A stretch of 64,000 bases of DNA from Botryllus schlosseri. Lineage: Eukaryota. The stretch spans positions 2,234,001-2,298,000 of the forward strand of contig CM119372.1 of the NCBI GenBank assembly GCA_051294905.1. Reading direction: 5' to 3'. Made by a program: the position numbers and the translations under genes. The notes beneath the pieces were generated by a model. The model saw nothing but the letters and a program-made list of their open reading frames with translations, ran no database searches and was not told the DNA's origin. This document shows positions 32,101 through 38,151 of this stretch, piece after piece (positions within the stretch are counted from its first letter, which is position 1; every line of letters begins with the position of its first letter).

Positions 32101-35100
32101 CAGCCCTAATGTCACCTCACGAAGTTCTGAATCTGTATAAAATTTGATGTTTTATTTATTTTATCAATCGACAAGCCTTCAACATATTGCACCTTTAAAT
32201 TAGGGTATTAAATTGTAATGCACCTCGCGGACCGGCACCGGTCCGCGGACCGGCGGTTGCGAACCACTGACCTAGAATAAGGCTAGGTAAAATGATTCGA
32301 ATACTCGAGAATTTGAATTGAGTATTGATTGCCATTATTCGAGTGGATTAGTTAGAGATGATCTTTTCGAGTGTTGAAAGTATACGCTCCATGCTGCCAA
32401 GAATTAATTTATCAACGAGAATTACAGATTCGCACGATTTTCCACTGCGGATCGCTGTAAACCTGGATTGGTAGTAGGCTACAGCATCAAGTGAAACATG
32501 TATAGTTCAGTGGTTCTCAACCTTTTTGTCTTCGCGGACCCCCTTTGGGCCATCACGGACGATTTATTATTATCGAGGGCCGAACATCGATTTCCACAAA
32601 GAAAGGTAGTGGGGAATGTAATAACAACGCGTAACGGCACCTTCGGGTATGATCGCAACATTCAGCCTATGGCACCAATACAACATCCAGCATATAGTCA
32701 TTTCTATCTTACAGCTCATCTTGACGGTCTTTTTGAGTAGCGATTGTGCATACAGGAGAATATGAATTTTGCAACAGTTTTTTTCAACAAAACATCTTTG
32801 AACGGCAATATGTTCGTATCAGTATAGGTTTTAGGCAATTGAGCAATTAAAATGAGTTTGCACGGCAGAATATTTCATATCAGACGGTCATTCTGTTTAT
32901 GTGAGTACCGACATTTTAGCAATAATATGAAGCGAAAGTCCTTCGCGATTTCTCTAATTAAAAATTAAATAGTATATTCATATTGAAATGAACCCGAATA
33001 TTTTCGGCTGACACTCGTCAGGGGTAATCGTCAGCAACTAGTAGAGAATTGGAAAGAACATTGTATATCAACAATCGTATCACAAAATATGACGTCACCA
33101 GCATGAAATTCTCTACTAGTTGCTGACGATTACCCCTGACGAGTGTCAGCCGAAAATATTCGGGTTCATTTCAATATGAATATACTATTTAATTGTATAT
33201 TGAAGTTCTGTACCTCCAAGAAGCTCTTCTAATTAAAAAGAAAAACATATCAGGTTATCAGCCATTTTGCATATTTGGAGGTTTTGTGGACCCCCTGAAA
33301 ATGCTTCACCGACCATCGGTTGAGAACCACTGATGTATAGTTTGAAGCTACTCAAGTTAGTGAAAATGACATTTCTCTGAAAGTCTCAAAGTGCAATGAA
33401 ATACTCATGGGAGAAAAACACCGAATAATCCTTAATATGATTTAAGACTGGCATTATATAGTGTTTCAGATCGCAAAAAATCTAAATATTTGAACTTTCC
33501 GCATTCATAATCTTGTTACTACGTATTATGAGCTATATACTCAAATAATAGAATCGAATCACTCAGGTATTCGGTTTTGCCCAACCAGCTATCGAATTGC
33601 GAAAAGTCTAGCAGTTCAAAATGATTCAGTCGAATTCGGTATAGTTTAGCCCGCAACTTAAAAAGAACCATGATAATCTACCGTTTGCCCGGACCCCGGA
33701 GTCGTCTCCGAGTAGGGTGATAGCTGGAAAGAGGTGAGGCGCTGCTTTTTTCAAGACGCGTTTCGCAACGTGTTTCACGAGATGTTTCCCATACCTGCAA
33801 CAGATAAAATAATACAATTTGGCATCTCCATAAGTTAGGCTTACCATACGACCTCTTTTAAGAGGATTTGTCCTCTTTTTTGACTTTTTTGAAAGTGTCG
33901 TCGGAGGACGCCCTTTTGTCCTCTTTTTTGAGATTTTGTCCTCTTTTTTGAGATTTTGTCCTCTTTTTTGAAAATTTAGGTCAGATTCAGAGCAAATTGC
34001 GAGTGATATGCCGCAAATTAGCACAGAAGTGAAGCTCCGGCGGGTATTTCGGAGTGAAAAACGGTGATTTTAGCTCTGAGCGAAAAGATGACCTTTTTTT
34101 TGTTTTAGTCATCCACCTGGCAACGTGGAGAGAAAAAAGGTATTTTGAGCTCTGAGCGGAGAAGATGACCTTTTTTTTCAGTCAACCGATCACAAAGTGG
34201 GAAAAATTCACCGGTTTTGAGAATTCTACTCCGGTTTTGCAAGTCTGAAATTTCTGAAAAAGTGTCCTCTTTTTAGATTTCCAAAATATGGTAAGCCTAC
34301 CAAAGTCGAATAATACGGTGGAACCAATGATATATATACAATGATTGGAAACTGCCACGCCCCCTAACGCTGTAAGGTTTACTCCCGCCGAAATCAGCGT
34401 GTGCGCGGATAAGGTTGACTGCATACACTTCATTGAGTGATGTTGACCGTGGTGGAGTACTGCTATCACCTTTGCCGGCAGATATTTCACTGTTTTTCGT
34501 TGGTTGGTTGATTGTTAATAGGTTTTGCGAGCATAGGGAGACAGTACTGCATACTAAGGTCTAATCAAACTTCCGCCAATGCGCAATATTCAGGTACTGA
34601 CTAGCTGCTTAGGTTTTTGCATCTGTGGACGAGAGTCAAAAAGCTTGGAAAATTAAGACAGATTGAGATTAGAACATTTATAAGCATCAATTACGCCATC
34701 TGATATCTTGAAAGCGAAACTGATTAAGATGCTTGTGTGATTGATCTTATTGCTGGTGGATGCCCAACCTGAAAATTCGATGAAACCCATTTAACAGAAA
34801 GCAATTTTATTGAAGGCTACTATAATATTTATAACTCATTTTTCTCACTAATAGTTGATTGATGAATAGTTGGTTGCGTCAGAATGGGGAGATAGTGTTG
34901 CATACCAGGGTGTGCTAAAACCTCTGCCAATGCGCATTTGTTTAAAGTTCCAGCAAAACGTTTTTGCACTGGAGCCAAATAGGCCTATGGATGGGCGGAA
35001 AACCTTGAGAAATTTATCAGGAGCATGCGTCAAGATCCGTGGCTGGATCAATTGTACAAAAAAGACGATTTAAAGATTTGCGAACTTCATTCGCGTCATC

Positions 35101-38100: not shown

Positions 38101-38151
38101 TACTAGCAGCAGGCAAATGAAAATGAAGGCAAGTGTCAAGAGAAACCTCAT
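29128..38151 (-). CDS. Cationic prepropeptide paralog 3 (most styelin-like). Exons 38151-38015, 33794-33682, 29619-29511, tentative 29156-29128
   Basis: MRFLLTLAFIFICLLLVDLSYG WRRRRRRHRRWGRVKGIVRRVIKK|YGKHLVKHVAKRVLKKAAPHLFPAITLLG-DDSGVRAN|TEQDYEEDLIEPVSDRLFLSKPDETGEDMVEFVDMP|GERYIPRDR*. Intron 1 is canonical GT-AG, phase 2. The exon 2 to 3 junction has a phase mismatch (a small exon is missing or the donor differs), and the last exon is tentative. Confidence 0.7.
29685..32269. mobile_element. hAT/Charlie-like non-autonomous element
   Basis: TIRs cagagattctcaacc / ggttgcgaaccactg; perfect 8-bp TSD acctagaa. Confidence 0.9.
30111..31094. mobile_element. Nested MITE with (GTCAA)n/GACTCGAGTC arrays
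   Basis: TIRs cagtgttgggat / atcccaacactg; perfect TSD ccacacac; sister copy at 40897-41856. Confidence 0.92.
32992..33025 (-). ncRNA. Minimal type I hammerhead ribozyme motif (inverted identical copy)
   Basis: Exact reverse complement of 33132-33165. Confidence 0.65.
33132..33165 (+). ncRNA. Minimal type I hammerhead ribozyme motif
   Basis: ACCC-CTGACGA-G(tgtcagc)C-GAAA-ATAT-TC-GGGT: helix I is ACCC/GGGT, the conserved CUGANGA/GAAA/UH core is present, and helix III is the palindrome AATATT. Confidence 0.65.
33836..34299. mobile_element. MITE, sister of 10825-11901 in opposite orientation, in intron 1 of paralog 3
   Basis: TIRs taggcttaccata / tatggtaagccta; approximate TSD ccataagt/ccaaagt. 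Confidence 0.88.
34884..36330 (+). mobile_element. P-element/THAP9-like transposase remnant (THAP domain plus catalytic region), antisense in intron 1 of paralog 3
   Basis: MGR*CCIPGCAKTSANAHLFKVP..W..ICELH (THAP zinc finger); FVADGLSGNRKMF..IFDPPHLLKTVRNNL and KMR..AVQLLSNSVA are P-transposase motifs; stops and frameshifts; older duplicate of the THAP exon at ~34535-34710. Confidence 0.85.

Follow-up and report, generated by a model that had tools for sequence, protein, structure and literature searches.

We examined a gene copy on the minus strand of a 64-kb window of the Botryllus schlosseri genome (assembly GCA_051294905.1, contig CM119372.1, positions 2,234,001 to 2,298,000; positions without a contig name refer to this window), called paralog 3 in an earlier note on this DNA and predicted to encode a strongly cationic peptide. 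The locus is probably a recently damaged duplicate within a cluster of Botryllus prepro-peptide genes that have four exons and the build of the botryllin gene. We regard it as highly likely that the copy is a real member of this family, and hold with equal confidence that it is damaged in the present assembly. Its peptide yield in the assembled haplotype is most likely low or nil, because its predicted product (106 amino acids, net charge +24) has neither the acidic tail nor the normal last exon. The intact members of the cluster, such as the sister gene P4, would by analogy encode secreted cationic, antimicrobial peptides, and we consider this likely.

Exon structure, damage and transcripts

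Joining the first two predicted exons (Table 1) gives a 22-residue hydrophobic-rich, signal-like segment, a 52-residue peptide and G-D-D, where signal peptides were called from residue composition and the family alignment. The spliced translation was identical to the 52-mer proposed earlier, with 12 Arg, 8 Lys, 4 His and no Asp or Glu; it also has no Cys, one Phe and one Tyr. Unspliced, the frame of exon 1 terminates directly after VIKK. The 52-mer opens with a poly-Arg head that is not amphipathic by itself (hydrophobic moment, μH, 0.30), while residues 11–28 have a μH of 0.60, reached in 62 of 5000 shuffles of residues 11–42, which bears out the amphipathic helix that the earlier note had placed behind the head. 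This Cys-free, cationic and amphipathic segment, a predicted helix, has the features of the ascidian linear cationic α-helical antimicrobial peptides (AMPs). The furin consensus is R-X-K/R-R, and four overlapping sites of this type fall within the head; the helix contains four dibasic pairs.

Three further features were added to the earlier description: a third exon, a frameshift and the absence of a fourth exon. Exon 2 measures 113 nt compared with 106 nt in P4, and the 7-nt surplus sits after G-D-D. They put exon 3 out of frame, and it hits a stop 38 nt before its donor, so that the tail consists of 31 residues (7 Arg, 1 Lys, 4 Asp). Exon 4 of P4 had a single DNA match in the genome, P4 itself; the studied block has no exon 4 of its own, the best tblastn match being the exon 4 that belongs to paralogue 1, and no match to the exon 4 sequence was found elsewhere in the window at up to 3 mismatches. 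Intron 1 has expanded to 4220 nt (215 nt in P4) and intron 2 to 4062 nt (776 nt in P4). The part that codes for the 52-mer is itself free of lesions, but given the frameshift after G-D-D and the loss of exon 4, the earlier implication that this copy makes the peptide is not supported.

P4 (C2:2504213; L010/L006) lies 232 kb from the studied copy. Across the genome, which comprises 495.5 Mb in 219 contigs, exons 1, 2 and 3 of the studied copy had one further DNA match each, all at C2:2.50 Mb, and shared with P4 the same splice positions and 118 of 140, 93 of 113 and 101 of 109 identical alignment columns, respectively. P4 is an open frame of 141 amino acids in four exons, comprising a signal, a 53-residue cationic peptide (9 Arg, 8 Lys, 5 His), Gly and a 65-residue tail with 27 Asp or Glu, with a net charge of −6 after the signal. 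Its intron phases, 2/0/1, recur in all six full models (P4, L011, L013, L014, paralogue 1 and botryllin), and the studied copy, without exon 4, shows 2/1. Over 113 codons, P4 and the studied copy differed with pS 0.234 and pN 0.083 (dN/dS 0.31), which indicates purifying selection on both copies during most of their history. The shared exons and splice positions, together with this ratio, place the gene beyond chance. It is very improbable that the window block arose by mis-assembly, as a second haplotype of the C2:2.48–2.52 Mb block: the two are collinear and in the same orientation, 232 kb apart, but their shared stretches are mostly 70–86% alike (best 90–91%), a synonymous divergence of 0.23 was judged too deep for alleles, and a contig of another run (X15) covers 23800–24733 with 20 differences.

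Transcripts were assessed by mapping four read runs, among them a single-cell run (X21) and a bulk run (X23), on positions 23800–38600 with a likeness filter of 91%; the splice-joint figures come from the 15 joints listed of 1105, and the 38015/33794 joint of exons 1 and 2 is not one of these 15. Mean X21 depth in the bin with exon 3 was 580.7 in the sense direction versus 11.3. From the exon 3 donor (29511), 2501 X21 reads and 124 X23 reads continue into one identical 30-nt sequence, which is absent from the window and shares 29 of 30 bases with the beginning of P4 exon 4; a P4-type transcript is therefore spliced and expressed in two studies. Since P4 exon 3 (93% alike) passes the filter, as do parts of P4 exons 1 and 2, the exon 3 reads need not stem from the studied copy, and those that join exon 3 to exon 4 come from P4 or an intact allele.

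The second of these sources raises the alternative that the damage is allele-specific, with other colonies carrying an intact allele that supplies part of the exon 3–exon 4 reads and makes the peptide. We consider this rather unlikely. The lesions are recent, given a dN/dS of 0.31 relative to P4 and a conservation of exon 3 that persists in the acidic frame (pN 0.046, pS 0.188), but P4 alone can account for the exon 3 reads, and the rough bulk depth of ~78 over exon 1 and ~235 over exon 3, one third, is as expected from cross-mapped P4 reads. The departure of the exon 4 read consensus from P4 at one base in 30 also fits a P4 allele, whereas an X21 depth of 53–65 at read ends in exon 2 is unexplained by the assembled P4 allele. 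Some details count against a copy that is both damaged and silent. In X21, 15 and 16 molecules have their ends at 33752 and 33754, respectively, where the assembled P4 allele is at most 89.7% alike over at least 25 nt, below the 91% filter, a hint that some RNA resembles the studied copy or an allele closer to it. The acidic frame might also be preserved through a weak phase-0 GT at 33694, combined with eight AGs in or near exon 3; exon 4 is missing regardless.

Table 1 Window positions of the parts of the studied copy, its lesions and the two neighbouring paralogues
Feature	Position	Strand	Description
Coding exon 1	38015..38151	-	137 nt, ATG at 38151, ends in phase 2, donor GTAAAG; signal-like segment, W-R6-H-R-R head, start of helix
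Poly-Arg head, residues 23–32	38056..38085	-	closes with the last furin-type site, R-H-R-R, then Trp
Intron 1	33795..38014	-	repeat-swollen, including a TNP-like transposase fragment at 35487–35948 (PF21787, E 2.3e-13)
Coding exon 2	33682..33794	-	follows a pyrimidine-rich AG; rest of cationic helix, hydrophobic end, Gly75, D-D
Exon 2 end	33682..33700	-	19 nt after D-D versus 12 in P4; the 7 extra bases resemble a short tandem duplication
Exon 3	29511..29619	-	109 nt; codes for the acidic propiece when read as in P4, but is frameshifted here; stop at 29551–29549
Repeat-like DNA, ~970 nt	28514..29481	.	occupies the place of P4's intron 3, exon 4, stop codon and poly(A) signal
968-nt element	38196..39163	.	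terminal inverted repeats 23/23 identical; insertion 45 nt ahead of the ATG; P4 lacks it
Paralogue 1	2069..3139	-	exons 1–3 in the window, exon 4 123 nt outside; open 162-aa frame only with a GC donor; no G-D junction
Paralogue 2	6579..10813	-	exon 1 carries a ~2.1-kb insertion; donor missing; reading frame not kept in exon 4; pseudogene-like, corresponds to L011

The poly-Arg head as a family trait

Genome searches with exon 1 of the studied copy returned at least 8 matches, and those with botryllin exon 1 at least 15. Among 21 distinct loci examined, 20 encode Trp at position 20–24 followed by a run of 4–12 Arg (W-Rn), distributed over clusters on C2 (two), C5 and C11 and single loci on C12, C15 and C181. 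The earlier note had inferred a cell-penetrating-like poly-Arg head fused to a styelin-like helix in paralog 3; a fusion special to this paralogue is not supported, as a W-(G)-Rn head is present in these 20 loci, in botryllin and in a Styela clava protein (XP_077967195) and is a trait of the family. In 12 of the 20 loci a Trp stands no more than 5 residues past the last furin-type site. W-Rn loci seen by exon 1 only lie at C2:17.35–17.41 Mb, C5:19.24–19.32 Mb, C15:6.78 Mb and C181:14.5 kb, and three loci (L015, L035, L036) have a Cys directly after the Arg run. The one head-less locus of the 21, L038, forms with L039 an inverted pair on C15 (3153860 and 3157692) with identical exon-1 matches; it combines a botryllin-type signal with no head, and G-W-W follows right after the signal, as described for styelins.

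A profile built from nine exon-1 sequences matched 14 of 1.84 billion proteins at E ≤ 0.001, matches that are driven by the signal and the Arg run and to which composition may contribute. We looked up 10 of the 14, and four were named, one from Styela clava and three from Branchiostoma. The Branchiostoma proteins (P0001, P0009, P0013) consist of a signal and W-R8 leading almost directly into an acidic region, with no long helix. Two other proteins, P0011 and the abalone protein P0016, bear an EF-hand, which in P0011 is preceded by an Arg-rich helix. A signal-peptide tree (26 rows, 23 columns; L039, L032 and L037 excluded as duplicates of L038, L015 and L014) grouped the studied cluster apart from botryllin, but with 3 of 23 branches starred it is too weak for claims about ancestry. 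A word-based protein search with exon 1, covering longer proteins only, gave 13 candidates, none at E ≤ 10, which is weak evidence, and the single ESM Atlas match at 0.79 was uninformative. Matches of exon 1 to Pfam DUF420 and similar families were set aside, being below the cut-off and due to the hydrophobic stretch.

We found no published description of a W-Rn family in the open-access literature, a scope that leaves out subscription papers including the primary styelin papers, and Figure 1 or S1 of the botryllin paper may already mark the head. The signal-W-Rn head could be an ancient module with a function in chordate defence peptides, shared by Botryllus, Styela and amphioxus and either kept as a membrane-engaging or penetrating head or released by furin as a peptide of its own, although we think this somewhat improbable. 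If it were true, Botryllus would hold at least 20 undescribed genes of this kind in several clusters under rapid birth and death, and the published activity of botryllin would pertain to a shortened peptide. The candidate loci widen the Botryllus antimicrobial repertoire from botryllin to ~20 candidate genes, with the helix of one cluster unrelated in sequence to styelins, and raise the question of whether the poly-Arg head serves as a propiece, adds potency or forms a separate peptide.

Relation to botryllin and styelins, and proposed processing

The botryllin primer given in PMC9966394 had one exact genome match, on C11, with 0 control matches, and the gene rebuilt there encodes 158 amino acids and 18.3 kDa; we take the genome on this ground to be that of Botryllus schlosseri or a very close form. 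That paper reports a precursor of 158 amino acids, equal in length, and 18.11 kDa, with a mature 37-mer of charge +11.2 and 4.35 kDa. We considered whether the studied copy might be botryllin itself and rejected this, as the botryllin primer and epitopes map to C11. Compared by phase, botryllin matches P4, with four coding exons and phases 2/0/1, and it is of the same genome type. It likewise has 22 residues before a W-(G)-Rn head, a cationic core of 40–47 amino acids and a long acidic tail; the signal precedes the head in both, which reads Trp23-R6 in the studied copy and Trp23-Gly-R5 in botryllin. The signals of the two align with a score reached by 26 of 2000 shuffles. Unlike the studied copy, the C11 botryllin copy has no Gly before its acidic tail, and the K-H-K motif of styelin and botryllin (PMC9966394) is absent from the studied peptide, which has Y-G-K-H-L and V-K-H-V instead. 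Two botryllin genes lie ~55 kb apart (C11:9117557 and C11:9172319; L025, L026), with a third relative at C12:11110484 (L027), and the pair and this relative bear on the question of isoforms versus paralogues in PMC9966394.

Botryllin begins W-G-R5, and its sole 37-residue window that fits both +11.2 and 4.35 kDa spans residues 33–69, from which we infer that the published active peptide omitted the head. According to PMC9966394, morula-cell granules store botryllin in propeptide form together with furin, and botryllin is released from them into extracellular traps. A botryllin paralogue falls in the morula-type cluster of a single-cell atlas (PMC13635237).

Styelins, as outlined in PMC8659048, PMC10608444 and PMC4881601, have a 22-residue signal, 31–32 Phe-rich residues directly behind it, a Gly amide donor and a 26-residue propiece; styelin D carries bromo-Trp, DOPA and hydroxylated Lys and Arg (PMC8659048). 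For the similar ATLL-G-D junction that the earlier note ascribed to styelin precursors, PMC8659048 bears out this order of parts and no more. The studied gene shares the 22-residue signal and the cationic helix. Of the styelin Gly amide donor and C-terminal acidic propiece, G-D-D is present here, and P4 reads the acidic tail in frame, which the studied copy does not. Unlike styelins, the peptide is 52 residues long (42 without the head), has one Phe and bears a poly-Arg head before its core. Exon 1 and exon 2, scanned separately, had no match at E ≤ 1 to the Pfam Styelin family (PF17562, 27-bit cut-off), and its seven sub-threshold matches genome-wide include none in the studied cluster; this test is insensitive, in that botryllin itself scores only 12.6–19.4 bits.

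The uncharacterised Styela clava protein XP_077967195 (P0004) shares the signal, a W-G-R5 head, the cationic core, the G-D junction and the acidic tail. Its core and tail align with those of botryllin at scores that no shuffle reached (0 of 2000 each), and weakly with the studied cluster (core 135 and tail 46 of 2000 shuffles as high). A word-based protein search with it returned itself and one abalone EF-hand protein, and no styelin. The styelin-likeness proposed earlier thus stands in layout, namely signal, cationic peptide, Gly and acidic tail, with the G-D junction retained in six of seven cluster members, but finds no support in sequence, where the core scored no better than chance against botryllin or XP_077967195 and PF17562 gave no match. 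The studied gene is built like a styelin or botryllin precursor and is not shown to be a styelin.

The same layout is known from Ciona, where signal, cationic amphipathic and anionic segments follow each other in 17 of 22 candidates and all five candidates tested were antimicrobial, according to PMC7387483. That source lists Ci-MAM, Ci-PAP, KH.C1.640, KH.C7.94 and KH.S908.1, several with Arg runs and the last with L-G-D; compared by layout, these precursors differ in being shorter (50–100 amino acids) and in their signal consensus. In fish, piscidin TP4 and the chrysophsins combine poly-Arg with an amphipathic helix, and the two act jointly at membranes (PMC12371492); their Arg run is C-terminal, and no homology is claimed. 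Bacteria are killed by Ciona peptides that are rich in Arg and share this layout (PMC7387483), which speaks for an antimicrobial role of the intact Botryllus precursors.

Our preferred model is that a furin-type cut removes the head, and we infer every processing step. Haemocyte granules would store the intact precursor, its positive charge balanced by the acidic tail, as the net −6 of P4 would allow. Upon release it would be cut between Gly and Asp and the Gly would become the amide, a furin-type cut would take off the head, and the freed helix would disrupt microbial membranes. In the studied copy such cuts would leave a 42-residue, Trp-initial helix of charge +12. Masses calculated for the unmodified sequences are ~6399 Da for the amidated 52-mer, ~4826 Da for the head-less 42-mer and ~6179 Da for the 53-mer of P4. 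We slightly favor removal of the head over its being kept. We consider it unlikely that the whole amide of 52–53 residues is the mature product and keeps its head as a membrane-engaging or cell-penetrating module. The head starts exactly at the predicted signal cut (Trp 20–24 in 20 of 20 loci) and is conserved against P4, with one non-synonymous and three synonymous differences in 10 codons, yet it contains four overlapping furin-type sites. Published work reports that natural AMPs gain potency from poly-R segments (PMC12371492), that Arg-rich Ciona peptides are active (PMC7387483) and that styelins mature directly after the signal (PMC8659048), but the active botryllin peptide (PMC9966394) seems to be head-less. 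The amphioxus proteins present W-R8 straight before an acidic region, with no helix and little else that is cationic, whereas L038 encodes a head-less version and the studied copy is damaged.

Several points weigh against head removal and an antimicrobial role. Every run of four Arg makes a furin-type site by construction, and in 8 of the 20 loci no Trp follows right after. Mature botryllin was selected in silico and is unpurified, as stated in PMC9966394. The alignment with the botryllin precursor that the earlier note had suggested was no better than chance for the helix core (268 of 2000 shuffles as high) or the tail (1478 of 2000), so function is assigned by analogy. The family may even be mainly something other than antimicrobial, its polycations binding polyanions (amyloid or DNA nets, tunic matrix), serving as phenoloxidase substrates or signalling, which we find quite doubtful: botryllin occurs in extracellular traps and was proposed as a phenoloxidase substrate (PMC9966394), and the studied helix is without detectable styelin homology, but the 52-mer has only one Tyr, and the Ciona record described above (PMC7387483) speaks for antimicrobial activity.

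Neighbouring paralogues and other features of the window

The two neighbouring paralogues, 1 and 2, are likewise altered (Table 1). In exon 2 of paralogue 1, a 12-nt tandem repeat (2805–2883, 6.6 copies) encodes Ser/Gly/Arg/Asn repeats that replace the G-D junction. The apparently intact precursors of the cluster, L014 (C2:2487295, 145 amino acids), L011 (C2:2499166, 137), P4 (C2:2504213, 141) and L013 (C2:2524264, 167), are better to study than the damaged copy. L013 has a run of 12 Arg and repeated K-K-Y units, and L011, L013 and L014 each have a single Cys before the G-D junction, which would make disulfide dimers possible.

A candidate fourth exon of the studied copy near 27555 was dropped, as reads splice elsewhere and the region is a high-copy repeat. 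This repeat (27000–27900, plus strand) gave 770 candidates, and all 40 scored matches were 96–100% alike; its GT-AG intron at ~27135–27610 is spliced in RNA (227 X23 and 333 X21 reads), with no long open reading frame (ORF) across the joint. On the minus strand, upstream of the peptide cluster, two class I methyltransferase exons at 56608–57180 and 61410–61952 (PF08241, E 6.5e-13 and 2e-13) are paralogous and 77% alike. The plus strand at 18000–22000 is GC-richer (46–48%) and contains a 196-amino-acid ORF (21180–21770) with a hydrophobic segment and then an Arg-rich tail, with no Pfam match of note. A 900-nt inverted repeat pair of 94% identity occupies 57472–58357 and 58893–59794.

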